Program-made: the position numbers and the translations under genes | Source of the DNA: Shigella phage SH-1 | Sequence record: PQ642266 | Strand: one strand, 5' to 3' | DNA length: 64,000 nucleotides | Shown: positions 13,154 to 39,055 of the stretch, one piece after another | Layout of the letters: each line of letters opens with the position of its first letter | How positions within the stretch are numbered: the stretch's first letter is position 1 | The notes under the pieces: model-generated | Told to the model about the DNA's origin: nothing | Databases searched by the model: none | What the model saw: the letters and a program-made list of their open reading frames with translations, nothing else

Positions 13154-13433
13154 ATTGAATCACCTTCAGTTGACGTTTTAGTTCTTTTATCATTTCTTCG
13201 TTCATCGCAATATAAAGATCGCGTAAAGCAGGCTTTAGCATTCCATTTATTGGGGAACTAAATGGACATACATAATCTTTTCCTACGAGCTTTTTAGTGA
13301 ATTCCATATTACAGAACTGAAATGCCGGTTCATTGGCATAAATTCCCCATTTGGTTGACATCATTTTATTGGCATATTCCAATGCCTGGATTTGATTCAT
13401 AATTCCATCAATTTGAAACTTTTTAATATTCAT
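13137..13433 (-). CDS. hypothetical protein (98 aa)
   Basis: Track ORF tightly packed with neighbours. Confidence 0.5.
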   Translation of the reverse strand: MNIKKFQIDGIMNQIQALEYANKMMSTKWGIYANEPAFQFCNMEFTKKLVGKDYVCPFSSPINGMLKPALRDLYIAMNEEMIKELKRQLKVIQFGQGN

Positions 13434-14907: not shown

Positions 14908-14938
14908 ATAGTACCACAGTATGCTTTGGTTGTAAACC
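14908..14938 (-). promoter_or_regulatory. sigma70-type early promoter (motA)
   Basis: Minus strand GGTTTACA, 17 bp, tgTGgTACTAT extended -10, A/T-rich UP region. Confidence 0.65.
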
Positions 14939-18020: not shown

Positions 18021-18045
18021 TTTCTGCTCCTCCGTAGTTGATAGG

Positions 18046-18078
18046 GTAATAATACCACAGAGGAACAGTCTTGTAAAC
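18046..18078 (-). promoter_or_regulatory. sigma70-type early promoter
   Basis: Minus strand GTTTACA, 18 bp, TGgTATTAT. Confidence 0.55.
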
Positions 18079-19376: not shown

Positions 19377-19436
19377 TAAACTTTCCTTTCACGTCGGAAT
19401 TACTGATATTCATATAATAAATCATAACTTCCCTTA

Positions 19437-19462
19437 AAACAAAAGGGCCGAAGCCCTTTTGT
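19437..19462. terminator. symmetric GC hairpin (GGGCCGAAGCCC core) flanked by T/A runs
   Basis: caaaagggccgaagcccttttg; folds on either strand. Confidence 0.5.
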
Positions 19463-19463
19463 T

Positions 19464-19658
19464 TTATTTGAATTGTGCAATTCTTTTCTCTAAACAATCT
19501 GCATAAGATTTCATTGAGATAAACTGCGAAAGCAACAGTTCTTGCTCAACTGCATTAACCGTTGAAAACTTTTCACTTTCTAAAAATTTACTCAATGCAT
19601 TAATTTTGAGCATTAATTGATCGTATTCTTCTTTTACTCGTGCTTGATAACCTAACAT
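19464..19658 (-). CDS. hypothetical protein (64 aa)
   Basis: ATG at 19658 with GAGGA upstream. Confidence 0.5.
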   Translation of the reverse strand: MLGYQARVKEEYDQLMLKINALSKFLESEKFSTVNAVEQELLLSQFISMKSYADCLEKRIAQFK

Positions 19659-26435: not shown

Positions 26436-26705
26436 TTAATTGAACAGTGGAGCGATGCGTTTCAGAAGAGTAGCAGCACCTTTGGCAAATTTTACATCAT
26501 GAAAAACAGTTTCTTCTTCCGTTACAACACGAGCTTTAATGTTTTCACAATCCCAATTTTTGCGAACAATCTTCAAAAGCTGCAGTAAATCTTTACATTC
26601 TGCAATATCGATAACACATCCACGAGAATCTTCCATTATCGCACGATAACCATAAGCCGTACCATAATCGTTGAAAGATTGTTCGATGATAATTAAGTTT
26701 TCCAT
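26436..26705 (-). CDS. hypothetical protein (89 aa)
   Basis: ATG at 26705 with GGAGAATAAA upstream. Confidence 0.5.
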   Translation of the reverse strand: MENLIIIEQSFNDYGTAYGYRAIMEDSRGCVIDIAECKDLLQLLKIVRKNWDCENIKARVVTEEETVFHDVKFAKGAATLLKRIAPLFN

Positions 26706-26730
26706 TTTATTCTCCAAGTTGTTTTCTGTA

Positions 26731-26771
26731 TCAGTAGTTGATATTGATATAGTACCATAATCAACTACTGA
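26731..26771 (-). promoter_or_regulatory. early promoter with extended -10 embedded in an 11-bp inverted repeat
   Basis: tcagtagttga ... tcaactactga arms flank TGgTACTAT; -35 weak. Confidence 0.45.
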
Positions 26772-26802
26772 TGTATATAGTTTTATGAAAAAATTTTAAA
26801 CT

Positions 26803-27300
26803 TTATGCACAGCGAGCTTTGCTATAGTGTTTAATCCAACTTTCAGGAATGACTTTGTATGTTCCTAAAAATACCGCGTTGTACAGCTTAACGCCATCTT
26901 CTACCCATTGATCAGTAATGTATGCACACATAGCACGAGTACGATGTTTTTGAACAACCCCTTCCTCATCTTCAGTAAATTCGAATTCATAAGGAGCAAC
27001 GAACTTAATAGCCTGACCGAGTTTCCACTTAAAGTCTACACCTACGTGCGAAGTATCAATTGTTTCAATTCCTTTAGCAGGAACAGCTTTCAAAAACGCA
27101 GACTCAAGAAATTTCGCACGAACATAGCCAAACTGAGGTTTAGACTTTCCATCTTTAGGAATGATACGCACTTTTACTTCAGAATCTTCATCTTTAACGC
27201 CGTGTTTAAGCTGAATGCTTACAATTTCAACCAATTTTCCTGCTGCTTTAGAACGGGATTTATCAGATACACGAGCAATTTCACCAATATTAATAATCAT
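26803..27300 (-). CDS. hypothetical protein (165 aa)
   Basis: Track ORF with ATG start; two early promoters upstream. Confidence 0.6.
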   Translation of the reverse strand: MIINIGEIARVSDKSRSKAAGKLVEIVSIQLKHGVKDEDSEVKVRIIPKDGKSKPQFGYVRAKFLESAFLKAVPAKGIETIDTSHVGVDFKWKLGQAIKFVAPYEFEFTEDEEGVVQKHRTRAMCAYITDQWVEDGVKLYNAVFLGTYKVIPESWIKHYSKARCA

Positions 27301-27344
27301 AGTTATCTCTCACTTGTTAAAAAGATTTTATACTCCACAGGACC

Positions 27345-27374
27345 ATTATACTCTGGTCCCAAGAGTTTGTAAAC
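27345..27374 (-). promoter_or_regulatory. sigma70-type early promoter
   Basis: Minus strand GTTTACA, 17 bp, TATAAT; -10 flanked by ggacc/ggtcc short inverted repeat. Confidence 0.6.
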
Positions 27375-27446
27375 TTAATTTAATTCACTAAACGATGATT
27401 CAACACGGTAAATTTTCATTTTATTATCCTCAGTAGCTATGGTGTT

Positions 27447-27477
27447 ATAATACCACAACTAACCGAGGAAGTAAACA
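27447..27477 (-). promoter_or_regulatory. sigma70-type early promoter
   Basis: Minus strand GTTTAC, 18 bp, TGgTATTAT. Confidence 0.55.
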
Positions 27478-27482
27478 ACTTT

Positions 27483-28166
27483 TTATCGTTTTGTTGGAAG
27501 AGACAGAGGATCGCATTCTTCCTCTGACGGAGCATCTTCAAGACCCATAGCATATCGCAAAGCATACTTCATCATCAGGATGTCTTTCGCACAGTCATGA
27601 ATAGAATCATGTGCAACGAATCCATCTAAAGTTCCCTTTGGAAGAGGACACGTGGTCATATCACGAACAAGGAGAAGTGCTTCAATTCTGGTACGAATAT
27701 CACGCTGATTCCAGAATTTACATGGTTCTAACTTAAATGTGTCAAGTTCATTCTCAGATACGCCATTAAGACGTTGAATATCGCGAATGAGATCGACTAA
27801 AATTGGAAAATCAAACGACATTCCACGGCACCAGCCTTGAGATTTCCAAGGATCGATGTTATGTGCATTGATGTAATCATTAAATTTTACAATACCATCG
27901 ATAGTGCTTACATCTTCATCTGATGGTGCAATATTTTTTCGAGCTTCAGGAGACTGATTTTTCCACCATTCGATAGTGCTTTTAGTAAAAAGACGATGTC
28001 CTTTTTGGCTTTTTAAATCAAATTTGATTTTAATGCCGCGTGAAACTAATTCATCGAACGTTTCAACTACTTCTGGATTAGGGTCAAAGGCAATAACAGC
28101 CAAATCAATAACAGCTGCTTTTTCACCACTTCCCATTGTTTCAAAATCTATAATAAAATCAAACAT
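27483..28166 (-). CDS. dexA: exonuclease A DexA
   Basis: 227 aa, MFDFIIDFETMGSGEKAAVIDLAVIAF..., DEDD-type exonuclease N-terminus; T4 dexA position. Confidence 0.85.
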   Translation of the reverse strand: MFDFIIDFETMGSGEKAAVIDLAVIAFDPNPEVVETFDELVSRGIKIKFDLKSQKGHRLFTKSTIEWWKNQSPEARKNIAPSDEDVSTIDGIVKFNDYINAHNIDPWKSQGWCRGMSFDFPILVDLIRDIQRLNGVSENELDTFKLEPCKFWNQRDIRTRIEALLLVRDMTTCPLPKGTLDGFVAHDSIHDCAKDILMMKYALRYAMGLEDAPSEEECDPLSLPTKR

Positions 28167-28408
28167 TAAATTTTCCTCGCTAAATCGCGAATTTGACCTA
28201 CAGTATAATCTTGGATATAAACTTTATTAATAGGCTCATCAATAAATTTTGCCATAGATTCAATATCTTTTTGTATCTCTTCAAGACTGTATACTATCTT
28301 TAAAGCTTTTTCGCGAATAGTAACATTATCAGGTCCTGAATTTTCTTGAATGACAGCTTTAACACTTGCCATAAGAGATTTAAACTGATGCAAACTTAAT
28401 TCAATCAT
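28166..28408 (-). CDS. hypothetical protein (80 aa)
   Basis: Track ORF trimmed to first ATG (track start is GTG). Confidence 0.45.
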   Translation of the reverse strand: MIELSLHQFKSLMASVKAVIQENSGPDNVTIREKALKIVYSLEEIQKDIESMAKFIDEPINKVYIQDYTVGQIRDLARKI

Positions 28409-28646
28409 TAATAACCGCCTTATAAAGATGGCTAATTTCACCTAAAACGTAATCACTGATTGTAACAGTTTTCACTTCACCACAAAAGAATTCTAACGCA
28501 ATCAAATCTCGTTCAATTTCTTCCAATTGAAGCATTAACTTGCCTGATTCAATTTTCACGTTTTTACGATTTTTACTATAAGCTATTTCATAAATTTCGC
28601 TTACTTTATCTTGAAGCAGATAAAACTGGTCTTTAGTTATTTCCAC
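28401..28646 (-). CDS. hypothetical protein (81 aa)
   Basis: Probable GTG start preceded by GAGGAAG. Confidence 0.45.
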   Translation of the reverse strand: MEITKDQFYLLQDKVSEIYEIAYSKNRKNVKIESGKLMLQLEEIERDLIALEFFCGEVKTVTISDYVLGEISHLYKAVIND

Positions 28647-28667
28647 GAATAGCTTCCTCAAATTTAA

Positions 28668-29987
28668 TCATACATAAAACACATCATAACGACCACGAGT
28701 GACACCAACATAAAGAAGCTGTTGAGCTAGTTCAGCGTCTGCATAATGAATACAAGGCGTATAGATAAAAGCACGATCTACAGACATGCCCTGAGCTTTA
28801 TGGAATGTTGACGCAGGAAGTGCTTTCACTTTACTAAATTGTGATTTAGCATCCCAAAAATCACTCCATGGAGCCTTTCCGCCTTTATTCCAATTTTTGT
28901 AAGTTTCTGCAGTTTTACCTAAAAATAAGTTAAACTTATACAGCTCTTCATCAGATGAAATTATTTTAATCTTTTCACGATAATATTCATCATCGCCGTA
29001 AGTTTCTACTGTTAAATCCCAATGACGAATTAGATATTCTCCAGAAACACCACGAGCTTTAACAAAAGTCGATGTATATTCTGCTTCTATAATACGAACT
29101 AATTGTCCGTTATTAAAAATAATTTCTGACACAGGCTTTCCATCAATTTTATATGTTTTAATTAACGGTTCCTGCATTACAATAATTTCACCAACGATAA
29201 AATCTTTATCGGTTTCAAAAATCTTTTTGCGAATAATGCTATTTAACTTATCAACAGATTTATTCGTAAATGCCATTACGCGATTTTCAAACAAATCATC
29301 TAGTGATTTAACGATTGAAAAATAATTTACCATAAAATCGCGTAAAGCGGTATCACCGGTAAATCCACGTACTCCATGCCCGTCAACAACTTTATCATAA
29401 ATCCACTTACCGTTGCGAACATCAGTAGCTACATCAATAATAGGAGCATTACTGCGTTTAACTTCGGTGAGTTCACACTGATAAAAATCTTTGTGCGTAA
29501 AGAATGGACTGATATAAGCAGTATTTTCTCCTGGGTCAACAGGTCTAATTTGCTTATTATCACCTATTCCAATTATAGTACACCATGGCGGGATGGTTGA
29601 AAGCAAAATTTTAAATAGCTTTCTATCATACATTGATACTTCGTCGCAGATTAATACTCTGCATTTAGCCAAATCCGGTACTTCTTTTTGCTCAAAAAGA
29701 ACGTTTTCTTCGTATGTTACTGGGTTAATTTTAAGAATACTGTGAATAGTACTCGCTTCTTTCCCTGACAGTTTTGAAAGAATCTTTTTAGCTGCATGAG
29801 TAGGAGCTGCTAAAATAATGCCAGTTTCGCCCGTAGATATTAAGGCTTCAATGATGAACTTAGTAAGAGTAGTCTTACCGGTACCAGCAGGTCCATTAAT
29901 AGTTACATGATGTTTCTTTTCTTTAATAGCCCTCATAACGATGTTAAAGGCATTTTTCTGGCCTTCGGTCAAATCATCAAATGTCAT
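28668..29987 (-). CDS. dda: Dda DNA helicase (SF1B)
   Basis: 439 aa; Walker A GPAGTGKT; matches T4 Dda N-terminus. Confidence 0.9.
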   Translation of the reverse strand: MTFDDLTEGQKNAFNIVMRAIKEKKHHVTINGPAGTGKTTLTKFIIEALISTGETGIILAAPTHAAKKILSKLSGKEASTIHSILKINPVTYEENVLFEQKEVPDLAKCRVLICDEVSMYDRKLFKILLSTIPPWCTIIGIGDNKQIRPVDPGENTAYISPFFTHKDFYQCELTEVKRSNAPIIDVATDVRNGKWIYDKVVDGHGVRGFTGDTALRDFMVNYFSIVKSLDDLFENRVMAFTNKSVDKLNSIIRKKIFETDKDFIVGEIIVMQEPLIKTYKIDGKPVSEIIFNNGQLVRIIEAEYTSTFVKARGVSGEYLIRHWDLTVETYGDDEYYREKIKIISSDEELYKFNLFLGKTAETYKNWNKGGKAPWSDFWDAKSQFSKVKALPASTFHKAQGMSVDRAFIYTPCIHYADAELAQQLLYVGVTRGRYDVFYV

Positions 29988-30295
29988 CGTAAATTCCCTG
30001 CAATTGGTATACTAACAATACGCCCAGTATCTAAAATTCGCCGATATAATCTTTGCGTGTCTACATCAGGCTTAACATGTTTAACTTCTATTTTATTAAA
30101 CCAAAACTTGCGTGGAGTCTCAACTAATCTCGGAATTCCCATACCTAAAGCTAGTTGATACTGCTCTTTAAGAGTTGTAAATACTTTATCAGCAATCTCC
30201 CTTTCAAAAAATATAGCAGGACGATGTTCATCAAGAGGAACAGGCACCGCAAATCCATCTTTATCTCTATACACTATCGCATATACATAAAACAT
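29984..30295 (-). CDS. hypothetical protein (103 aa), dda.1 position
   Basis: Track ORF overlapping dda start by 4 nt. Confidence 0.55.
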   Translation of the reverse strand: MFYVYAIVYRDKDGFAVPVPLDEHRPAIFFEREIADKVFTTLKEQYQLALGMGIPRLVETPRKFWFNKIEVKHVKPDVDTQRLYRRILDTGRIVSIPIAGNLR

Positions 30296-30296
30296 A

Positions 30297-31043
30297 TTAT
30301 CCTCGGATAAGTTTAAAAATTGAACAATTTAGCGGGTATCCTCTTTTCAGTTTAAGTTTATCAATAAAAGACAAGTTTTGATACCGCTCTACACCTTGAA
30401 TAATTTTATCACACATATCATATTGCATTTCTGCTTCTGACAACTTTTTCACAGTTTTCCAATCCGAGCCTTTAAGAAGAACGTTCAATTTAACAACTTC
30501 AGCGCCTTCTGCTATATGAGAACCATCAATACGAGCTTTAAGTGCTATAATCGTTAGCTTAACGTCAGAAGTTTGTTTTGATTTAGAAAGCTGAGAAATG
30601 TGCTCAATTCGATTTTCACGTTTTTTCTGTATAGCTTTAATTTGATTATAAGTCTTTTTGATTTTAGCCCATTTCTTTTCATCTAAATTTAGTTTATGAA
30701 CTTTTTTCGCAGATGAACGACCAATTCGCAAAGCAAATAAATCACGCTTTTCAATCAACTCTTCTAAAGTATAATCAGAACGAAATGTATTATACTTTTT
30801 CTTTACTGCAATAACATTCCCTTTAATATATCCAACGTTATTATCAAAACGTTCTAATGATAATTTCTCTCCTTCAATACGATTATCAAAAGGTTCTCCC
30901 GAGTAAGCGCAAACTTTCTGATCTAAAATGTTCTTAATGTAATTGAAGTCTAAGTTAAAATCTTTAGAACGTCTTTTAGCGGATGCCTGAGTGTGCTCTA
31001 GACGACGTGTAATTTTACGAATTTGATTTTTAGACAGTTTCAT
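30297..31043 (-). CDS. srd: Srd-like protein (248 aa)
   Basis: Basic 248 aa protein between modA and dda.1; size and position of T4 srd; identity not verified. Confidence 0.5.
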   Translation of the reverse strand: MKLSKNQIRKITRRLEHTQASAKRRSKDFNLDFNYIKNILDQKVCAYSGEPFDNRIEGEKLSLERFDNNVGYIKGNVIAVKKKYNTFRSDYTLEELIEKRDLFALRIGRSSAKKVHKLNLDEKKWAKIKKTYNQIKAIQKKRENRIEHISQLSKSKQTSDVKLTIIALKARIDGSHIAEGAEVVKLNVLLKGSDWKTVKKLSEAEMQYDMCDKIIQGVERYQNLSFIDKLKLKRGYPLNCSIFKLIRG

Positions 31044-31072
31044 ATTTTTCTCACGGATGGTTAACTACTTAT

Positions 31073-31102
31073 ACTATAACATTTTTACTTCAGCTTGTAA
31101 AC
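31073..31102 (-). promoter_or_regulatory. sigma70-type early promoter
   Basis: Minus strand GTTTACA, 17 bp, TATAGT. Confidence 0.55.
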
Positions 31103-31158
31103 AACTTTATGAAAAATGCTTTAAAACTTTCATGGTATAATGAATCTAAGTCCTTCCA

Positions 31159-31761
31159 TTATAGATTAAATCCTTCAAAGTCAAGAGTATAGATAGTGTA
31201 TGTTGAATGCTTTTTATACTCATATCTATCCGCAATTCTAAATACACTTCCAGCTGGTATCATTACTTCTTGTTCATCTGAAACTAATTCCATATTACGA
31301 TAGCGATGGCTATCCGGAAACTTAAAACTTGGACTATATTCTTTACAGCGTAGAGCTTTTATAGCATACTCCTGGAAATTAAATACCATAGGAGCTTTGA
31401 ATTCAAAAATAACTTGTGTGTTGTATTCTAATCCAGAAGCAAAATGCAGAGCTATATTTTTATCATATGAAGCTGATACTACTTTATCGAATGTAATAAT
31501 ATCAATTCCTTGATTTAACACCTGTTTAGTCTCAACTGGAACACCTCTCCAAAGAGGTTTATCGTTTGGTTCCAAACGAGATTTGATTATTTCATTTAAC
31601 CAAGAATGATCGTCTGGCTTATTAGTAATACAATGAATTAAAAGTTCAATTTCAGATAAATTAAATCCTTCAGAAAGTAATTCTTCACGAATAGAAGCAC
31701 GCACCGATGCATCCATTGATTTGATTTTAAAATCTTTTAATTGCATTGCTGAATATTTCAT
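31159..31761 (-). CDS. modA: ADP-ribosyltransferase ModA
   Basis: 200 aa; R (LWRG), S-x-S (SAS) and E (EQEVMIP) ART motifs. Confidence 0.8.
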   Translation of the reverse strand: MKYSAMQLKDFKIKSMDASVRASIREELLSEGFNLSEIELLIHCITNKPDDHSWLNEIIKSRLEPNDKPLWRGVPVETKQVLNQGIDIITFDKVVSASYDKNIALHFASGLEYNTQVIFEFKAPMVFNFQEYAIKALRCKEYSPSFKFPDSHRYRNMELVSDEQEVMIPAGSVFRIADRYEYKKHSTYTIYTLDFEGFNL

Positions 31762-32381
31762 TCAACTACCTCAATATCATACACTTTAAATGTTCCAAAC
31801 GAATCGTGTAATTTTTCTTTTGAAATAGAAGTTATTTTATACTTTCCAATTGGAATCATCCATTCTTGTTCACGCACAATCATCATTAAGTTATCAGTAC
31901 GTTCTGAATCTAATCCATCAGTATCTTCATATGTATACTTAAACTCAGTATTAGGAGAAGAAAGTATAATATCGCTGATATGGTCAGAGTAATTAAAAGC
32001 TTTATCAGTTTTTAAGCGAAGTACTATTTCAGTGAAATATTCAGCATAGGAAAAAGAACACGCTGTATGCAAACTAGTAGTAAATGAATCTACTCTGTTC
32101 GTTGAAAACACTTCTCCAACTTGTAAATCTTTAATGAGTTCTTTTGTCGATTTTGATATACCACGATATAACTGATAAGGTGATTCAGTTAAATGCTTTT
32201 TAATGATTTTATTCAACTGCCGATGAAGAGCTTCATTCTTTTTGGCTTCCATACATTGCCAAAGAATTGACTGTTCAAAGTCAGTAAATTTTTCACAGAC
32301 CTTTTTATACATATCATATTGAAAATCGACACTTTCAGCTTTTATAGATAACTGTTCAACATCTGCGAGATTAATAATCAT
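31758..32381 (-). CDS. modB: ADP-ribosyltransferase ModB
   Basis: 207 aa from ATG at 32381 (GGAGG upstream); R (YRG), STS-like and E (EQEWMIP) motifs. Confidence 0.75.
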   Translation of the reverse strand: MIINLADVEQLSIKAESVDFQYDMYKKVCEKFTDFEQSILWQCMEAKKNEALHRQLNKIIKKHLTESPYQLYRGISKSTKELIKDLQVGEVFSTNRVDSFTTSLHTACSFSYAEYFTEIVLRLKTDKAFNYSDHISDIILSSPNTEFKYTYEDTDGLDSERTDNLMMIVREQEWMIPIGKYKITSISKEKLHDSFGTFKVYDIEVVE

Positions 32382-32407
32382 GATAGCCTCCATATACTTC
32401 AGAAGCT

Positions 32408-32437
32408 ATCATATCATTGTTAGGAAGGAAAGTAAAC
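32408..32437 (-). promoter_or_regulatory. sigma70-type early promoter
   Basis: Minus strand GTTTAC, 18 bp, TATGAT. Confidence 0.5.
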
Positions 32438-32448
32438 AACTTTTTGAA

Positions 32449-32631
32449 TTATTTTGCCCAGGGAGCCCAGGGCGGAGGGTCAAGATGGTATGAAGCTAGT
32501 TCTTCTAGAAGAGCATCTGGGGCTTCAATTCCATAATTCTGTAATACTATACGGTACTCTTTCTTATAATCACTAGAATCATTCTGGATATTCGTAGAAT
32601 GATTATCTTCTAACATCTCAAATAAATCCAT
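32449..32631 (-). CDS. hypothetical protein (60 aa)
   Basis: Track ORF with ATG start. Confidence 0.4.
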   Translation of the reverse strand: MDLFEMLEDNHSTNIQNDSSDYKKEYRIVLQNYGIEAPDALLEELASYHLDPPPWAPWAK

Positions 32632-32639
32632 ATTAATTC

Positions 32640-33110
32640 CTAGCGATAAAAACCAAAATAACGATTAGCTTCAATAATTTTTCTTTCTTCTTCGGACATT
32701 CTCCAGCGCAGTCCAACATCAAAATGAGCCCAGACCATCTTAACAAATGCATTTATATCTTTAATATCTTCAATAATGAATGTTTTACTTTTAGAAGGTT
32801 GACTCGCTAATTTAACTTTATCATCTTCAAACAGGTCAAAAAGACCATATTCATGAGCTCTTTTATAGCCTTTAATAGTTAAAGCTTCAGAAGAAGAAAA
32901 TGGTGAATCAGTATTCTGCAAAATATCTTCAGTATGCTTTATAATTAGAATAACATTTTCTGGATATTTTCTTTCTTTTATATCTTTAATTAAAATATCC
33001 GGATTTTCTGCTAAAGGAATAATTAATGAGCACTTTTTGTCAAGTGTATTTACCGATTTACCTTCTTTAGACATAAATTCTATTGAATAATGTTTTGCTA
33101 CTTCAATCAT
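32640..33110 (-). CDS. hypothetical protein (156 aa)
   Basis: Track ORF; could correspond to T4 mrh by position, not verified. Confidence 0.5.
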
Positions 33111-33263
33111 GTGATTTCCTCTTGCCTACTAATGGGCCGTCAGGAATTTTGTTTTCCTGGATATATTTCTCATTTTCTTCCATCATTTTACTGCCAATTT
33201 TAAGAAGCAAATCCAATGCTTCATTTGCTTTAGCCTTGGCCTCTTCTAGCGTCATATCTCTGT

Positions 33264-33467
33264 TCACGATTTATCCCCATAGATGTCTCTCATCAATTTA
33301 AGCGCTGAGCGTTCTAATTTCTTTTCTTTCTCAACGCTAATCATTGATTTCATCCATTCTTCTGATTCGTTCTGCATTTCTTTATTTGCTTGTTCAACCC
33401 AACCATCATCAATGTACATTGAGTTTGGTCTATTGAACCATTCAAACATTTTCTTCAGAACTTTCAT
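33264..33467 (-). CDS. hypothetical protein (67 aa)
   Basis: Track ORF. Confidence 0.4.
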
Positions 33468-33939
33468 TTGTTTTACCTAAAACAACAGTAGGAGCATCAT
33501 CAAATTCATGAATTTTTAGCAAATTTGGATGTAAACTATTCCACACAGAAGAAATAAAGTATGATAAAGCATCTTCGTCCACAATTATAAATTTATTTCC
33601 TTTATCTATTTTCCAACTATATACTGAATCGTACGAATAAAAAGATAAAGGTTCATCATTATATTTTTCTGTGTTAACATTAATGTATTCTGATTTAGTA
33701 AATGCTTCAATTGCTCTAAACGGAATATTTGGTACAGTTTCAATAATACCAATCTTTTTAAGTTTTATTTCAGCATCTTCTGGAACTGGCATTGAAACAA
33801 AATTTTCTACGAGATACATTGGGTCACAATAACCCTTATCAATCATTACTGCTACTGTAATTGGAATATCTTTAGCAAACGCCATGCTATCACTGCTAAT
33901 ATACATTTCAAACAAAATCGCTTCCATAATTTTCCTCAA
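33442..33939 (-). CDS. hypothetical protein (165 aa)
   Basis: Track ORF. Confidence 0.5.
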
Positions 33940-34268
33940 TCACAAGATGTAGATGAACAACTAGAATCACAAGAACTTCCACACGAATCGCCCGTCCATA
34001 CATGAACAGGAACATTAGTGTCATATGAATCAGAACTAGACTGCGTATTAGATGATGTAGTAGGTGTTGACCAGCGCCAAGGATTTTTATAATATTCTTG
34101 GGCTTCTTCATAAGTCATAGTAACTGCTTCTACTGTTCCATCTCCCATATAAACATATTCAACTACAGTTAAAGGAAGGTAGTCATTTGAAATAGGAACT
34201 ACACCTTCTCCGGGAGTTGTAGAGAAAAAATCCGTAAAGAAACTTTTAAACCAATTAAAGATAAACAT
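33936..34268 (-). CDS. hypothetical protein with Cys/Ser-rich C-terminal tail (110 aa)
   Basis: C-terminus [18 protein letters not shown]. Confidence 0.5.
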
Positions 34269-34474
34269 TACAAAAAGCCTCTCTTGAATTCAACTTGCTT
34301 CTCGCCATAATCATATCGAATCTCTGCATTAAATTCGACAGAACCATCTGCGTACATCATAAATGAATGCACAACAACTTCTGTAGACCATGGCTGCAGT
34401 TCATATTTCTTCATTACATGCCGTGAAATGATAATATCTAAATCTTCATTTGGTTTAATCCAACGATTTAACAT
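34268..34474 (-). CDS. hypothetical protein (68 aa)
   Basis: Track ORF. Confidence 0.45.
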   Translation of the reverse strand: MLNRWIKPNEDLDIIISRHVMKKYELQPWSTEVVVHSFMMYADGSVEFNAEIRYDYGEKQVEFKRGFL

Positions 34475-34538
34475 AGTGCTCTCCTCTATAAGATAATTCT
34501 ATTATACCATACTCATTTTGGAAAGTAAACCAGTAAAA

Positions 34539-34566
34539 TGAAAAAAGGACTCCCGGAGGAGTCCTT
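34539..34566 (-). terminator. intrinsic terminator downstream of soc
   Basis: Minus strand AAGGACTCC-TCCG-GGAGTCCTT hairpin followed by TTTTTT. Confidence 0.7.
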
Positions 34567-34570
34567 GAAT

Positions 34571-34816
34571 TTATTCACCAGTTACTTTCCACAAATCTTC
34601 GTTTGCAGTAATCCATTCAGTACGTTGATTTTCTTCATATACTGTAGAATATGCTGCTTTTTCTGAAGGGAATGTCTGGTAATGAGAGCCAGAAATTTTG
34701 TGAACGTCAGAATAAAGAGGGAAAGCTACAGAAATTTCCTTTCCTTCAATTTTCTTATTTCCATCTAATTTTTGCTCAAATGTTTTGATATTAACATAAC
34801 CGCGAGTACTAGCCAT
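34571..34816 (-). CDS. soc: small outer capsid protein Soc
   Basis: 81 aa; MASTRGYVNIKTFEQKLDGNKKIEGKEISVAFPLYSDVHKISG... matches T4 Soc. Confidence 0.9.
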   Translation of the reverse strand: MASTRGYVNIKTFEQKLDGNKKIEGKEISVAFPLYSDVHKISGSHYQTFPSEKAAYSTVYEENQRTEWITANEDLWKVTGE

Positions 34817-34832
34817 GTAATTCTCCTTTTAT

Positions 34833-35042
34833 TTAAATTACATGACTATTTATAATAAATTCTTGCGGAACGCTAAAATATCCAATTTTAGTTAATATAA
34901 CAACATCACCGTTAATAACTACCGGAGAATAATCGGCTGGAGCATTAAACTTCCAATGAGCTCTAATATTATATCCATCAGAACCAAATGCTCGACTAGC
35001 CGGTCTCCCGGCTTTTTGCCATGCATAAAAATCAAATTTCAT
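34833..35042 (-). CDS. hypothetical protein (69 aa)
   Basis: Track ORF with ATG start. Confidence 0.45.
   Translation of the reverse strand: MKFDFYAWQKAGRPASRAFGSDGYNIRAHWKFNAPADYSPVVINGDVVILTKIGYFSVPQEFIINSHVI
34847..34854 (-). promoter_or_regulatory. T4-type late promoter (TATAAATA) for soc
   Basis: Minus strand TATAAATA about 30 nt upstream of soc ATG. Confidence 0.65.
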
Positions 35043-35239
35043 TTTGAATGCTCTATAATTAATTTTAAGGCTTCTTCATGCACCTTACCTAATTGTATAT
35101 GTCCAGTTTTAATTGTGTAAGCTTTGTGGAGCTGATTAGATAAGAGCTCACATACGAGCTCCTTGTCATAATTTTTAAATAGCTGGTCAATACGTTTCTT
35201 GTGGGCTTTCTTAAGCTGGCGTTTATTTAAACGAGCCAT
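35039..35239 (-). CDS. hypothetical basic protein (66 aa)
   Basis: Track ORF with ATG start. Confidence 0.45.
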   Translation of the reverse strand: MARLNKRQLKKAHKKRIDQLFKNYDKELVCELLSNQLHKAYTIKTGHIQLGKVHEEALKLIIEHSK

Positions 35240-35757
35240 TAATAACCTCGGTCTTGACGAGCGAAGTTTTCAGCATTTTTCAGATAATAAAGTTTAAAGA
35301 TTTCTTCAGCCGTAAGACCAAGACCTTGGAACATGTTCAGAACGAAATGAAGAATATCAATCATTTCGAATTTAATTTCCAACTGGTCTTGTGGAGACAA
35401 ATCAGTAATTAGAGTTTCACGGCGTTCACCATGCTGTGACTTCCAAGGCTTCCATACAGCAGATGCATCTTTTTCACCATTGCTCATACCGCCAAGAGAT
35501 GTCAGAAGTTCACGGAATTCATCATCAATGTAATCTTTCTGATTACGCAGCCAATCAACAACTTCGCCTGCAGTAGCCAAATCATCAGGATGACGGTTAT
35601 ATTCAGGTTTATCTTTAGCTAAACGAACCTGCAAAGATTTCTGCATATCAAGCATAACTTGCAGTGGGTCTTTTTCGTCACCGAGAATATCCCAGTATTC
35701 ATTTTGAGCTTTATCAGCGCCTTCGATCAGTTGCGAACATTCATTAAAGTAAGCCAT
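35239..35757 (-). CDS. 56: dCTPase / dCTP pyrophosphatase gp56
   Basis: 172 aa from MAYFNECSQLIEGADKAQNEYWDILGDEKDPLQVMLDMQ...; matches T4 gp56; track ORF extends upstream. Confidence 0.85.
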   Translation of the reverse strand: MAYFNECSQLIEGADKAQNEYWDILGDEKDPLQVMLDMQKSLQVRLAKDKPEYNRHPDDLATAGEVVDWLRNQKDYIDDEFRELLTSLGGMSNGEKDASAVWKPWKSQHGERRETLITDLSPQDQLEIKFEMIDILHFVLNMFQGLGLTAEEIFKLYYLKNAENFARQDRGY

Positions 35758-35791
35758 TATTTTTCCTTTCAATTCATGGGTTAGTAGATTA

Positions 35792-35817
35792 ATTATACAA
35801 TAAATATATAAAGCAAT
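35792..35817 (-). promoter_or_regulatory. MotA-dependent middle promoter for gene 56
   Basis: Minus strand TTGCTTTA (MotA box) then 11-12 bp then TATAAT. Confidence 0.5.
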
Positions 35818-35828
35818 AAGGAGGACAT

Positions 35829-36029
35829 ATGGTACAAAAATTAATGGCACTTGTTAATGCCATAAAAGGTAATAAAAAACGTATAGCTTTTACTATTTCT
35901 GCTATGGTAGGAATTTTACTTTGGAATTTTGTTTTATCACCAATTGCTATTGCTCATGGTGTTAATATTCCAGTAATTACTCTTGATACATTCGTAGATT
36001 TAGCATTTGCTTTAGTTGGGTTAATTTAA
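35829..36029 (+). CDS. hypothetical small membrane protein (66 aa), opposite strand to flanking early genes
   Basis: AAGGAGG 4 nt upstream of ATG; two hydrophobic segments; fills the gap between gene 56 promoter and gene 61 stop. Confidence 0.35.
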   Translation: MVQKLMALVNAIKGNKKRIAFTISAMVGILLWNFVLSPIAIAHGVNIPVITLDTFVDLAFALVGLI

Positions 36030-37054
36030 ATCTTAGCATATTTAGATAGCCGCATTTTAGCCATCAACCCCTGGGCAATATTATTTTTCATATATTCCAT
36101 AATTTGTTCAGGGGTTGCACCTTCCTTTCTAATCATATCATTAACATCTTTTGATTTCCAGGGAGATTTGTCCCAAAACATAACCCTTTCTCCTGCATCA
36201 ACTAATTTAGTCATTCGTTTAATAGTGTCAGGATGACGAGGTTCATTATCTAAAACCCACACACGTCTATCTTTAAATGGAACAATTTCTAGGTCTAATT
36301 GACCACCTGTAATAGCTATACCATTTTCAATAAAAAGTGAATCTATAGGTCCTTCTAGAACATATACATCACCATCTTTAACTCGTTCAACGCCATAGAT
36401 TTTTGTTGCTTCAGGATAAGCTTTGATGGTGATATATTTTTGAGGAGCATCTTTCTTTAATGCACGTCCTTGAAAAGACTCAGCTTTTCCATTAGCATTA
36501 TAAATTGGAATAACAAGACGAGGCTCAGGTATTTCCTTTTTGTATGTTCCTGGTGCTATACTATTAACTAATTTAGGCCATTCGGTTGTAAACCAAAGAT
36601 ATTTCCATTTATCCTTTGGAATACAACGAGCTTTTACATATTTTATAATTGGATGGTCTTCCGCCAGTTTATCTAATCTAATGCATGACGGAAGAGATTT
36701 AATTATTTTCTTCTCAGGTTGTTTAGGAAGTTCTTTAGGTTTTTCTACTGGACGACTTTTACCTTTTTCTTTTCTTATTTCAAAGATATACTCACGATAT
36801 AAATCAGGTTCAAACTCCTTTAAATATATTCCGATTGGTGCATGATAGTTGCAGTTATAACAATGAATATTTCCTTCATTATTATCGCCGTAATACCATC
36901 CACGGGCTTTATTTTTGTCGGTTTTTGAATCTCCACAAACAGGGCATCTAAACCGTAATTTAAAAGTTGAACTATTATTTACTTGTGTGAATTTAGGTAA
37001 ATGAGCTAATGCACGATATGCAAACTCATTATCAATCCAAGGTATTGATGGCAT
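36026..37054 (-). CDS. 61: DNA primase gp61
   Basis: 342 aa; zinc ribbon CPVCGDSK...CYNCNYH; matches T4 gp61. Confidence 0.9.
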   Translation of the reverse strand: MPSIPWIDNEFAYRALAHLPKFTQVNNSSTFKLRFRCPVCGDSKTDKNKARGWYYGDNNEGNIHCYNCNYHAPIGIYLKEFEPDLYREYIFEIRKEKGKSRPVEKPKELPKQPEKKIIKSLPSCIRLDKLAEDHPIIKYVKARCIPKDKWKYLWFTTEWPKLVNSIAPGTYKKEIPEPRLVIPIYNANGKAESFQGRALKKDAPQKYITIKAYPEATKIYGVERVKDGDVYVLEGPIDSLFIENGIAITGGQLDLEIVPFKDRRVWVLDNEPRHPDTIKRMTKLVDAGERVMFWDKSPWKSKDVNDMIRKEGATPEQIMEYMKNNIAQGLMAKMRLSKYAKI

Positions 37055-37056
37055 TT

Positions 37057-37221
37057 TTACTCTTCTTTTTCTTTAGATTCCTCTTTTTTCTTTTTAGGAA
37101 TCTGTTCAGGACCTTTATTTACTACAGCGCCTGACGTTGTTCCAGTAGAGATATTTTCAGGATTACCACCTGAATCTCCAGCTACCATATCTTCTTTAAT
37201 AAATTCTTTATATGTTTTCAT
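37057..37221 (-). CDS. hypothetical small protein (54 aa), 61.1 position
   Basis: MKTYKEFIKEDMVAGDSGGNPENISTGTTSGAVVNKGPEQIPKKKKEESKEKEE. Confidence 0.4.
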   Translation of the reverse strand: MKTYKEFIKEDMVAGDSGGNPENISTGTTSGAVVNKGPEQIPKKKKEESKEKEE

Positions 37222-37222
37222 A

Positions 37223-37579
37223 TTAACCTCTATTCATAAAAGCATTAAAAATTTGGTCATCAATCGATGGAATAGCAACCTTTTCGGCATCATTTAGCAA
37301 ATCATTAATTTCATCAGATAGCATAACGCATGTACCTTTATTTCCTGTAATTGTTACTGCGCAATTACGAACGTTTTCTTTATCAAATTTTAGGTTAATA
37401 TTTTCGTAGTGAAAATCCTTTAATGCCGAATATATCTTTAAAATGAAATTGTCTTTTACTACAATAAACCCAACTTCACTATTAAAACGTGGTTCATGGA
37501 AACTGTAATAAACCTTTTCATCTATAAAATCGTATGAAATTTTTTCCATTTTTAAATATGAAAATTCAGAACTATACAT
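37223..37579 (-). CDS. hypothetical protein (118 aa)
   Basis: Track ORF with ATG start. Confidence 0.5.
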   Translation of the reverse strand: MYSSEFSYLKMEKISYDFIDEKVYYSFHEPRFNSEVGFIVVKDNFILKIYSALKDFHYENINLKFDKENVRNCAVTITGNKGTCVMLSDEINDLLNDAEKVAIPSIDDQIFNAFMNRG

Positions 37580-37591
37580 ACTAACCTCTAA

Positions 37592-37885
37592 TTACTCACC
37601 TACCACTTCAGCGATGATATTTTTATTATTGAAGTTTTTATCACAATACAGAACGTAATTATACTGCATTACACCACCAGACTTAAGCTGTTTTTGCACT
37701 TCAGCTTTCATTTCAGGACGATCACGCTCAACGATATTCATAATATCCGCTTCAATTTGAGTTTCAACTTCAGTCTGATCTGCAGTCATAGACCATTCAC
37801 ACAAGTCTTTATCATAACCTGCCATAGCAGGCTGAGCAGCGCAAGAAGATAAAGCAAAAATTGCAGCAAAGATAAATTTTTTCAT
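37592..37885 (-). CDS. sp: periplasmic protein, Spackle-like
   Basis: 97 aa with signal peptide MKKFIFAAIFALSSCAAQPAMA; size and position of T4 sp. Confidence 0.6.
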   Translation of the reverse strand: MKKFIFAAIFALSSCAAQPAMAGYDKDLCEWSMTADQTEVETQIEADIMNIVERDRPEMKAEVQKQLKSGGVMQYNYVLYCDKNFNNKNIIAEVVGE

Positions 37886-37988
37886 GATAATCTCCTCAGT
37901 AGTTTATGTTTATAGTATCTCAATTTTCAACAAAAGTAAACACTAGTAGAAGCAAACAGACAAATTGCAATAATTGGTGATTTCAGTT

Positions 37989-38183
37989 TCATTCTTCTCC
38001 TCCTTCATGTTGATGAACATATTCTTTTTCAAGTCTAGAGCACAAGTTTTCATATTCAACTAATAAAAATGAATCAAGTGCGTTATTTCTATGCTGACAC
38101 CGTTCTTGTAAAGAATCCATCTCTGAGCGTTGTTCTTGTGTTAATAATTGATAACCTGATACTTTAGACATTTTGTTCTCCAT
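37989..38183 (-). CDS. hypothetical protein (64 aa)
   Basis: Track ORF. Confidence 0.45.
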   Translation of the reverse strand: MENKMSKVSGYQLLTQEQRSEMDSLQERCQHRNNALDSFLLVEYENLCSRLEKEYVHQHEGGEE

Positions 38184-38235
38184 TTACTCGTTTGTTTTGA
38201 TAGGTCTATAATAACATGTTTAAAACAAAAGTAAA

Positions 38236-38490
38236 CTATTTTATTTCCTCAAGTTCGTTAATCAATAAAAGTTCTCTGACGCTAAAAACAAAGAAAAATG
38301 TGTTCCCATCAACAAGAGCATGACCGCTAATAGAACACCCTCTGCGGAATTTAGAAACTTCACAATCTAGAACTGTAAAGGGTTTTAATCCTATGACTTT
38401 AGCTGTGCGTCTATTCAGTTCACAACCACTCGCGAATTTTTCCAAATCTTCTTCTGATTTAAACTGATATTCTCTATTAACTAGCATCAT
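38236..38490 (-). CDS. hypothetical protein (84 aa)
   Basis: Track ORF. Confidence 0.5.
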   Translation of the reverse strand: MMLVNREYQFKSEEDLEKFASGCELNRRTAKVIGLKPFTVLDCEVSKFRRGCSISGHALVDGNTFFFVFSVRELLLINELEEIK

Positions 38491-38508
38491 TTTCTTTTCT
38501 CCGCGATT

Positions 38509-38549
38509 AGCTGATAGAATTACTATAACACAACTCTATCAGCTTGTAA
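38509..38549 (-). promoter_or_regulatory. early promoter whose -10 lies between 9-bp inverted repeats
   Basis: Minus strand GTTTACA, 16 bp, TATAGT; arms gctgataga / tctatcagc. Confidence 0.5.
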
Positions 38550-38553
38550 ACTA

Positions 38554-38853
38554 CTATTTTAAAACTTCTGTATAATCACATGTTACAAACTGTTTCTCTA
38601 ACTTGACGATTTTACGAAAGTATCTTTTGCATTGGCGAATCTGCCGCTTTGTAGGGCGCACAGCAAATTTAATAAATTCCACTCGACCAAATGGAGGACT
38701 TTCTTCTGCTGGAATATCTAACACCAATTCCCACGTATCTGCAACAAGTGCTTTGAATTGAGTATTTTTCCTGACATTATACGGAGTAGGTTTAAATAAA
38801 ACAATATGCATATTATCCTCGGCAATCCACTTCACATACTTTCTTGTCATCAA
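38554..38853 (-). CDS. hypothetical protein (99 aa)
   Basis: Track ORF. Confidence 0.5.
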   Translation of the reverse strand: MMTRKYVKWIAEDNMHIVLFKPTPYNVRKNTQFKALVADTWELVLDIPAEESPPFGRVEFIKFAVRPTKRQIRQCKRYFRKIVKLEKQFVTCDYTEVLK

Positions 38854-38995
38854 TGAAAGCTTTAACTAATGCTTTATTAACTTCAGCATATTGAGTAGTA
38901 GCCCATTGAACGTCATCTTTCATCATTGTGATTTCTTTAGTAAACATGCTTTCATTCTTAAACCACCCCATAAAAACTACCTTTACCAATTCCAT
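38813..38995 (-). CDS. dmd: Dmd-like antitoxin (inhibitor of host RnlA/LsoA)
   Basis: 60 aa ORF immediately downstream of gene 41, size and position of T4 dmd. Confidence 0.6.
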   Translation of the reverse strand: MELVKVVFMGWFKNESMFTKEITMMKDDVQWATTQYAEVNKALVKAFIDDKKVCEVDCRG

Positions 38996-39013
38996 AAAAA
39001 TCTCCTCATTTAA

Positions 39014-39055
39014 CCGACAAGACTACTATACCATAGTCTTGTCGGCTTGTAAACT
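39014..39055 (-). promoter_or_regulatory. early promoter with -10 inside the loop of a 12-bp perfect inverted repeat
   Basis: Minus strand GTTTACA then ccgacaagacta-TGgTATAG-tagtcttgtcgg. Confidence 0.55.

Follow-up and report, generated by a model that had tools for sequence, protein, structure and literature searches.

Early promoters nested in RNA hairpins in Shigella phage SH-1, putative T-even representatives of the PeSL class

Introduction

The closest described counterparts of the elements reported here are the PeSLs (promoter-early stem-loops) of phages RB49 and phi1, in which a sigma70-like early promoter preceded by an AT-rich region is combined with a stem-loop, a Shine-Dalgarno (SD) sequence and a start codon (Arbiol et al., 2010; PMC2839356). 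Five subclasses were distinguished by the position of the stem-loop, which most commonly lies between the -35 and -10 elements or overlaps the -10. One RB49 stem-loop reduced expression of a downstream lacZ as strongly as rrnB T1, and recombination between PeSLs gave rise to mini-circles in RB49 and phi1 (PMC2839356). Comeau et al. (2014; PMC4122927) subsequently catalogued PeSLs of the phages PST/T4 and nt-1/KVP40, and the T-even versions are described as AT-rich. The stem-loops have been interpreted as terminators or attenuators of upstream transcription (PMC2839356, PMC4122927). Here we describe four early promoters, S1 to S4, in a stretch of 64,000 nucleotides from Shigella phage SH-1 (record PQ642266; the whole stretch is referred to as the window), each of which has its -10 element enclosed by an inverted repeat, and we compare them with these and other known systems.

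Elements of a similar kind occur at the internal-protein (IP) loci of T-even phages, which, as summarized in PMC2839356, are hyperplastic and carry T4 early promoters with weaker, AT-rich stem-loops of variable size (Repoila et al., 1994). T4 early expression is a textbook system, for which the reviews consulted leave open how read-through (delayed-early) RNA is kept apart from immediate-early units and how early mRNAs are selectively stabilized or destroyed. In T4, each of the genes e (lysozyme), soc, 49 and I-TevI has a promoter within a hairpin, and in RNA initiated upstream this hairpin conceals the ribosome-binding site. Small inversions of hairpin loops flanked by short inverted repeats are known from chloroplast non-coding DNA, and templated mutation at quasipalindromes is well documented in T4.

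Results

The -10 elements of four early promoters are enclosed by inverted repeats

Judged by its sequence, the window comes from a Tequatrovirus, a T4-like phage: over the 14-kb region around the sites, identity is 99.4% with Shigella phage SH-2 and 94-98% with hundreds of Tequatroviruses. Its genes lie on the minus strand from about 12 kb onward, and S1 (26730-26772), S2 (38509-38544), S3 (39014-39045) and S4 (27341-27360) are all minus-strand promoters. The sites were mapped to genes by comparison with the annotated T4 record. S3 is located between gene 41 and dmd and is the dmd promoter, and S4, upstream of motB, is the motB promoter. S1 precedes an open reading frame (ORF) of 89 aa (26436-26705) between motB and cef, which another record calls e.8-like, while S2 precedes an 84-aa ORF (38236-38490, ORF84) after gene 61.4 that is goF/ComC-alpha-like in other records and absent from T4. 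The modules are intergenic, starting at the stop codon of the upstream gene, which abuts the -35 element (at S3 it is the gene 41 stop), and ending with the SD sequence and start codon of the gene that follows.

A preliminary description of this DNA had placed the extended -10 elements of S1, S2 and S3 within perfect inverted repeats and had noted a shorter ggacc/ggtcc pair at S4. All of these are present at the positions given there, with maximal arms of 13, 10 and 12 bp at S1 to S3, and with 6 bp plus a seventh, G.U pair around the motB -10 at 27341-27360. Perfect stems of at least 12 bp numbered three in the window against an expectation of 0.15 from 60 first-order Markov simulations of the window, the third being a terminator at 19435-19466; two stems reached at least 13 bp against 0 expected. 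Around the -10, a perfect stem of at least 10 bp was found at 3 of 29 promoter-like sites, compared with 0.18% of random positions. When folded as RNA, S1 to S4 gave z-scores of -5.6, -4.1, -8.1 and -4.0, and minimum free energies between -16.7 and -23.9 kcal/mol (S1 -20.2, S2 -18.0, S3 -23.9). These values confirm that the inverted repeats at the early promoters are real and exceed chance. The sense RNA was more stable than the antisense RNA at all four sites (S2, -18.0 versus -12.6 kcal/mol; S4, z -4.0 versus -2.6). However, shuffled sequences showed part of the same bias; this comparison was therefore dropped as proof of action at the RNA level and we relied on substitution patterns instead.

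The arms of the hairpins occupy the free positions of the promoters, i.e. the spacer between -35 and -10 and either positions of about -7 to +5 or the leader, and leave the constrained -10 in the loop. By its geometry this placement is forced, since promoter makes up the whole of the intergenic region and no other bases in it are unconstrained. At all four sites the spacer is filled by the upstream arm. In S2, S3 and S4, which have a fixed register in common, the last T of the -10 is the first base of the downstream arm. In S1 this arm begins 11 nt past the -10, in the leader, and consists of the conserved early-leader motif ATCAACTACTGAT. On the coding strand, S3 reads GTTTACAAG-CCGACAAGACTA-tggTATAG-TAGTCTTGTCGG-ttaaatGAGGAG...ATG. 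The S1 hairpin is intact in T4 and at least 99% identical in 376 records; one GenBank record, OL960580, annotates it as a terminator predicted by WebGeSTer.

None of the four hairpins is followed by a U-run (the tails are UUAAAUGA, AAUCGCGG, ACAGAAAA and GUGGAGUA), and a standard terminator scan called none of them. The U-rich tract directly 3' of a G+C-rich stem that characterizes intrinsic terminators is thus lacking at S1 to S4, and the earlier statement that these are not intrinsic terminators holds as far as canonical ones are concerned. The U-less promoter hairpins contrast with the canonical G+C-rich terminator at 19435-19466, which has a 14-bp perfect stem and a cgaa loop; a second canonical G+C-rich terminator hairpin, at 34545-34566 after soc, scored terminator-like on both strands. 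Searches of the whole window against Rfam gave zero matches at gathering score. An 8-bp inverted repeat made up of A and U only (UUUGUUUU/AAAACAAA, 38195-38233, minus strand) that surrounds the -10 of the ORF 37989-38183 promoter formed no stable hairpin (z 0.17) and was not counted.

Substitutions preserve pairing in the sense RNA

Orthologues were gathered from GenBank phages, IMG/VR and metagenomes. The scan of IMG/VR and metagenomes for dmd-promoter variants gave about 15 true loci among 86 matches, most of the matches being due to chance. The perfect repeat of the window is atypical for dmd: an exact 71-bp match to S3 was present in only 2 of 510 records, and in most relatives the repeat is imperfect as DNA and yet pairs as RNA. 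In the commonest allele, CTGACAAGACTA/TAGTCTTGTTGG, only 10 of 12 positions are Watson-Crick pairs at the DNA level, and the sense RNA pairs completely by means of two G.U pairs. Among eight S3 haplotypes, each stem substitution resulted in a Watson-Crick or a G.U pair, and one pair went through the full series from G-C via G.U to A-U. The loop, which holds the -10, was invariant.

BLAST searches with S2 uncovered homologous promoter-hairpin modules at unrelated loci in Mosigviruses, one adjoining ipI and one near frd, with the arms TGATAGGACTA/TAGTCCTATCA and GATAGGGCTA/TAGCCCTATC. When S2, S3 and the Mosigvirus modules were aligned in register, 96.8% of the cells were paired and both sides had changed in 7 of 14 pairs. 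None of 500 shuffles reached the observed values, and slid registers paired at 23-62%. The motB hairpin showed two compensatory pairs between Tequatrovirus and Gaprivervirus, with a G.U intermediate in phage UPEC01, in a comparison of four sequences that is not significant. Counting the single A-to-G variant of S1, nine stem pairs displayed G.U states on the sense strand and zero displayed A.C. This asymmetry, together with four hairpins of the window that are stable on the sense strand only, speaks for selection on mRNA-sense RNA rather than on a DNA cruciform or a protein-binding palindrome. The substitution data thus point to pairing that is kept by selection on the mRNA-sense RNA.

The preliminary description had regarded structure as the conserved feature, and the search for compensatory changes across related phages that it had proposed bears this out: pairing-preserving covariation was found (7 of 14 pairs, 0 of 500 shuffles), as were G.U intermediates, both in orthologues and in homologous modules. 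Its view that the arms are of unrelated sequence holds in part. The arms differ by site, except that those of S2 and S3 belong to homologous hairpins, which match in register and differ by compensatory changes, and that the 3' arm of S1 is a recurring leader sequence. S2, S3, the T4 dmd promoter and a promoter at 31101 have GTTTACAAGC(T/C)GA in common.

S1 to S4 belong to the PeSL class

All four promoters are of the sigma70 type with hexamers about 17 bp apart, namely GTTTACA-N17-TATAGT in S2 and S3, TTTACA-N17-TATAAT in S4 and TATACA-N17-TACTAT with a TG extension in S1, as compared with the T4/PST consensus TTTACW-N17-TAYWAT. The sequence expected of a PeSL is present, for example ttaaaattttaGTTTAC in S3, ttttaaaatagtaGTTTAC in S2 and tttaaaattttttcataaaac in S1. 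A stable stem-loop lies in or next to the promoter, at S1 to S4 overlapping the -10, and the intergenic motif has a downstream SD sequence and start codon at its 3' end. The modules are also associated with variable small ORFs and with junctions of indels that separate close relatives. Every feature by which PeSLs are recognized in sequence thus occurs at S1 to S4, which on these grounds are members of the published class.

In the main text of PMC2839356 the terms covariation and compensatory are absent, and an analysis of strand or of G.U pairs was not found in PMC2839356 or in the accessible portion of PMC4122927. What is added here is the comparative evidence for selection on the sense RNA, the register common to S2, S3 and S4 and the flipped-loop polymorphism at motB that is described below.

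The architecture recurs at a minority of early promoters

The segment from promoter to start codon was folded for a curated set of 16 early promoters of the window. The outcome was bimodal. Seven of the 16 had a sense z of -3.1 or lower, i.e. S1 to S4 and the promoters at 18077, 27475 and 32436, and the other nine were above -1.6; 12% of random segments reached a z below -2. The hairpins at the latter three promoters contain G.U pairs and are sense-specific. In all, four hairpins of the window were significant on the sense strand only. Positions of all hairpins and promoter elements are collected in Table 1.

Table 1. Promoter-associated hairpins of the window and their promoter elements
Feature	Position	Strand	Description
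S1 hairpin	26730-26742 / 26760-26772	minus	13-bp perfect arms; loop of 17 nt with 5 further inner pairs
S1 promoter, -10	26749-26754 (hexamer)	minus	extended TGgTACTAT; enclosed by the S1 repeat
S1 promoter, -35	26772-26777	minus	weak, TATACA; drives ORF 26436-26705
S2 hairpin	38509-38518 / 38535-38544	minus	10-bp perfect arms; loop of 16
S2 as RNA	38509-38544	minus	14 bp including two G.U pairs; 8-nt loop ugUUAUAG
S2 promoter	-35, 38545-38550; -10, 38522-38527	minus	drives ORF 38236-38490
S3 hairpin	39014-39025 / 39034-39045	minus	12-bp perfect arms; loop of 8; as RNA 15 bp, 39012-39047
S3 promoter	-35, 39048-39053; -10, 39025-39030	minus	loop consists of the TGG extension and the first five -10 bases
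S4 hairpin	27341-27346 / 27355-27360	minus	GGACCA/TGGTCC, 6 Watson-Crick pairs
S4 as RNA	27340-27361	minus	GGGACCA/TGGTCCU including G.U as seventh pair; 8-nt loop gagTATAA
S4 outer helix		minus	5 bp, ACUCU/GGAGU, outside the main stem
S4 promoter	-35, 27368-27373; -10, 27345-27350	minus	
Hairpin of promoter 18077	18024-18068	minus	15-bp stem with G.U; -35 at 18072-18077; 3' arm holds SD GGAGGAG; z sense -6.7, antisense -1.2
Hairpin of promoter 27475	27427-27469	minus	about 17 bp; -35 at 27470-27475; 3' arm holds SD GAGGA; z sense -6.4, antisense -3.5
Hairpin at modB start (promoter 32436)	32379-32413	minus	5' arm begins in the -10 TATGAT of promoter 32436; 3' arm spans SD and AUG

The early region of a Mosigvirus (50 kb) has a set of its own, with perfect repeats of 12, 13 and 14 bp and different arms around other -10 elements. 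The modB hairpin is conserved there (gene start 19292), and at the Mosigvirus positions 13258, 19292 and 26164 the 3' arm contains the SD sequence or the AUG. One further hairpin promoter of this kind was found in a Gaprivervirus. At least three T-even genera thus show the architecture, which varies in its arms and occurs at a minority of their early promoters. Downstream of gene 41 in Mosigvirus and Gaprivervirus, U-tailed terminators lie directly upstream of the -35, or the -35 is inside the terminator loop (aaaaGGGGTGTACACCCCttttt); this geometry of early promoters with U-tailed terminators is another one of those found among PeSLs.

A putative role in attenuating or capping upstream transcripts

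If the start site of the nested promoter is placed about 7 nt after the -10, as we assumed, its transcription would begin inside or beyond the 3' arm, so that the hairpin would fold only in RNA reading through from upstream. The same had been proposed in the preliminary description, and the promoter geometry agrees with it, the 5' arm being limited to RNA started upstream. In the read-through RNA the hairpin would sit a few nucleotides past the upstream stop codon, where it may attenuate or terminate read-through of the upstream transcript, or may serve as a 3' stem-loop barrier to 3'-to-5' exonucleases after the RNA has ended or been cut downstream. Either way, adjacent transcription units would be insulated. 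At the sister promoters that have the SD sequence in the 3' arm, the hairpin would in addition keep read-through RNA from being translated into the product of the downstream gene, and the conserved UP-element/-35 part of the module would double as a recombination junction for swaps of promoter and ORF cassettes.

We assign a probability of roughly 0.55 to the reading that S1 to S4 are T-even-type PeSLs in which a strong early promoter is overprinted on an RNA hairpin that acts on the upstream transcript. The most likely role would be to attenuate upstream transcripts or to cap their 3' ends, and the processing or stability role that the preliminary description had suggested is plausible. In keeping with a role of this kind, a canonical terminator within 150 nt upstream was present at none of the seven hairpin promoters, as compared with four of the nine promoters that have no hairpin (about p 0.09). 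Further indirect support comes from the lacZ assay in which an RB49 stem-loop behaved as strong terminator (PMC2839356), from the upstream stop codons next to the -35 and from the terminator predicted at S1 in OL960580.

Several points weigh against this reading. The terminator comparison, at about p 0.09, involves small numbers. Intrinsic termination at these sites is doubtful because there is no U-tract and the standard scan calls none of them, and the sole termination experiment concerned a G/C-rich stem-loop of RB49, not a T-even one (PMC2839356). As far as its legend goes, PMC4122927 puts the PST/T4 stem-loops 'just upstream' of the promoter and not around the -10. The G.U sample is small, its events were not counted phylogenetically, and strand-biased mutation could contribute to the excess. 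Homologues of the S1 promoter in Mosigviruses are entirely devoid of a hairpin, which is therefore dispensable at the S1 module. Finally, our search of literature and datasets for T4 transcription start site, 3'-end or processing data yielded nothing usable.

Translational masking and RegB

Because the promoter is inside the hairpin at every site, the structure might also tell transcripts apart by their origin, in that the leader or SD sequence would be masked in read-through RNA and open in the promoter's own RNA, with consequences for translation or for cleavage by RegB. RNA structure is known to shield GGAG from RegB, and translation of I-TevI is structurally repressed in upstream transcripts (PMC3014915). 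The SD or AUG does lie in the 3' arm at 18077, 27475 and 32436 of the window and at the Mosigvirus positions 13258, 19292 and 26164. For promoter 32436, masking was predicted in read-through RNA only, the unpaired probability of the SD being 0.05 in read-through RNA, 0.55 in its own RNA and 0.44+-0.08 when the upstream sequence was shuffled. According to such models, the hairpins at 18077, 27475 and 32436 would block translation in read-through RNA only. At S1 to S4, however, the SD is outside the stem, at a distance of 2-33 nt. The predicted accessibility of this SD in read-through versus own RNA was 0.80 versus 0.88 at S2 and 0.44 versus 0.41 at S3, was unchanged at S4 and remained within the shuffle range at S1. 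On the basis of the equal accessibility at S2 to S4, SD masking as a general function was rejected for S1 to S4 and kept for 18077, 27475 and 32436.

A coupling to RegB likewise received no specific support, since the strong-site consensus GGAGRAYARAA follows hairpin and hairpin-less promoters alike; in a comparison of leaders, RegB-consensus sites were no richer at the former than at the latter. At a distance of 2-3 nt past the motB hairpin there is a GGAG (GGAGTATAAAA, 27328-27338, minus strand) whose 3' context is A-rich like that of strong RegB sites; it is kept in Gapriverviruses, yet it is not the motB SD sequence. Taken together, we consider discrimination of transcripts via translation or RegB unlikely as the explanation for the hairpins. 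A broader version, in which the hairpin is present in read-through (delayed-early) RNA and absent from own-promoter (immediate-early) RNA, decides the fate of the RNA by capping after cleavage by RegB or RNase E or by masking SD or RegB sites, and has arms that allow heritable flipping of the -10, strikes us as rather improbable. If it were true, flips of the motB type would amount to a small on/off polymorphism of promoters.

Loop inversion, cassette exchange and a probable spacer replacement

The repeats may alternatively be a matter of DNA, arising as by-products of intrastrand template switching (quasipalindrome correction) and persisting as hot spots of recombination, prone to form cruciforms or hairpins, that drive the shuffling of cassettes, with no function of the RNA. 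The perfection of several repeats over 10-14 bp would suit this explanation, and so would the history of S1. Its downstream arm is the leader motif ATCAACTACTGA, which is repeated at other early genes, and its -10 and leader recur at position 14936 of the window and in Mosigviruses with a better -35 (GTTTACA in Mosigvirus) and a non-complementary spacer. In Tequatrovirus S1, the -35 is degraded and the entire spacer is a perfect complement of the leader. As the same -10 and leader have a non-complementary spacer and a better -35 elsewhere, S1 probably arose when its spacer was exchanged as a block for the exact complement of the leader, for which template switching would be a plausible route. 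The 5' arm of S1 would thus not stem from a series of point changes.

Promoters of the S1 to S4 type also coincide with exchange of small genes, which recalls the PeSL-PeSL recombination and mini-circles of RB49 and phi1 (PMC2839356). Relative to T4, the window has two extra cassettes of promoter and ORF between 61.4 and sp, namely ORF84 (38236-38490) and ORF64 (37989-38183). When window 37886-38553 is compared with T4 L001 16053-16112, the junctions fall on the -35 and the first bases of the spacer, at GTTTAC and at TTTACTTTTGTT, which the ORF64 and sp promoters have in common; 5' parts of promoters of 12-13 nt are shared at the cassette borders, in agreement with recombination between PeSLs. 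In T4, an internally deleted and unannotated remnant of the 89-aa e.8-like ORF (L001 2484-2653) is left behind the intact S1 promoter and hairpin, and in Mosigviruses the S1 module and its ORF have a different neighbourhood. Unlike the S2-ORF84 and ORF64 cassettes, S3 and S4 precede conserved genes. The Mosigvirus module by ipI (LR027386, about 14.9 kb) consists of an S2/S3-type hairpin with a leader, ctatcaaaacaaatgagtaaatggag, that is homologous to that of the ORF64 promoter of the window. In the latter promoter (38186-38242) the spacer pairs weakly with a different segment of the leader, such that homologous modules have different pairing solutions.

A DNA event was seen at motB, where about 10 of 536 records, among them G4507, KIT03, fPS-2, KMB42, NiC89 and MLF4 (NC_054919, 6681-6750), have intact arms and, in place of the loop gagtataa, its exact reverse complement ttatactc. 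The flip moves the -10 TATAAT to the opposite strand, and the coding strand is left with a shifted TATACT. A clean inversion of this kind is a repeat-mediated event at the DNA level.

The patterns of substitution do not favor the DNA explanation. The common dmd allele has an imperfect DNA repeat (10 of 12 Watson-Crick) and complete pairing as sense RNA. All nine polymorphic pairs are G.U and never A.C, a preference that is not expected of a strand-symmetric DNA structure, and four hairpins of the window are stable on the sense strand only. Moreover, the recombination junctions were seen upstream of the hairpin, in the -35/UP region. A pure DNA element or mutational by-product therefore appears quite improbable to us.

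Processing sites and operators

Early mRNA of phage T7 is cut between cistrons by RNase III. Stems of 14-18 bp between cistrons of the sense RNA could likewise be sites where RNase III or another double-strand-specific enzyme separates the cistrons of read-through early RNA. RNase III substrates, however, typically measure about 20 bp, more than these stems, which moreover match no Rfam family or known T4 RNase III site, and RNase III does not figure among the major early-mRNA activities in a review of T4 RNA decay, which makes this explanation very unlikely. A palindromic operator, in which a dimeric protein or a supercoil-driven cruciform shuts the promoter by sequestering the -10, would account for the symmetry centred on the -10 at a time when the mechanism of early-promoter shut-off is unresolved (PMC3014915), but is hardly credible, since the arms vary by site so that one protein cannot read all of them, hairpins are present at only about 40% of the early promoters, the G.U pattern argues for RNA, and the stem of the common dmd allele is mismatched at two positions as DNA. 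We conclude that RNase III sites and operators are unlikely explanations, as is chance.

Discussion

The evidence presented here favors the view that the hairpins of S1 to S4 are T-even PeSLs acting on the RNA that arrives from upstream, while the exact role of the T-even hairpins is putative. As the PeSL class has already been published, the discovery is a modest one. Still, the hairpins are compact RNA structures, under selection, exactly at the boundaries of transcription units, and they offer concrete targets for mutation at dmd, motB and the e.8-like ORF. They illustrate overprinting, an RNA structure being written into the only promoter bases that are free to vary. In T4-like phages they also mark the junctions used in the exchange of small accessory genes.

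Compared with the PeSLs of RB49/phi1 and PST/T4, S1 to S4 have the same intergenic module, and the same association with small variable ORFs and with indel junctions. They differ from RB49 PeSLs in the stems, which consist of polyG/polyC in RB49 and are AT-rich with site-specific arms here. The difference from PST/T4 PeSLs, as these are described in the legend of PMC4122927, is that the -10 forms the loop, in a fixed register at S2 to S4. With the IP-locus elements there is a direct link, a module of the S2/S3 type adjoining ipI in a Mosigvirus; S1 to S4 themselves lie outside the IP loci, in the motB-cef and 41-dmd-sp regions.

Another parallel is found in the T4 genes e, soc, 49 and I-TevI, with a promoter in a hairpin and an own transcript that has no 5' arm, and the same logic is found at 18077, 27475 and 32436. 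Yet theirs is a late or middle promoter with the SD or AUG in the 3' arm, whereas S1 to S4 contain an early promoter and have the SD outside the stem. Like intrinsic terminators and REP-type or other 3' stem-loop stabilizers of mRNA, S1 to S4 place a stable stem-loop right after a stop codon, and their distribution is complementary to that of canonical terminators upstream of early promoters; unlike them, they have no U-tract and overlap a functional promoter. Finally, the motB variants resemble the loop inversions of chloroplast DNA and the quasipalindromes of T4 in that the arms stay as they are and the loop turns into its exact reverse complement, and they differ from both in that the flipped segment is the -10 of a promoter.

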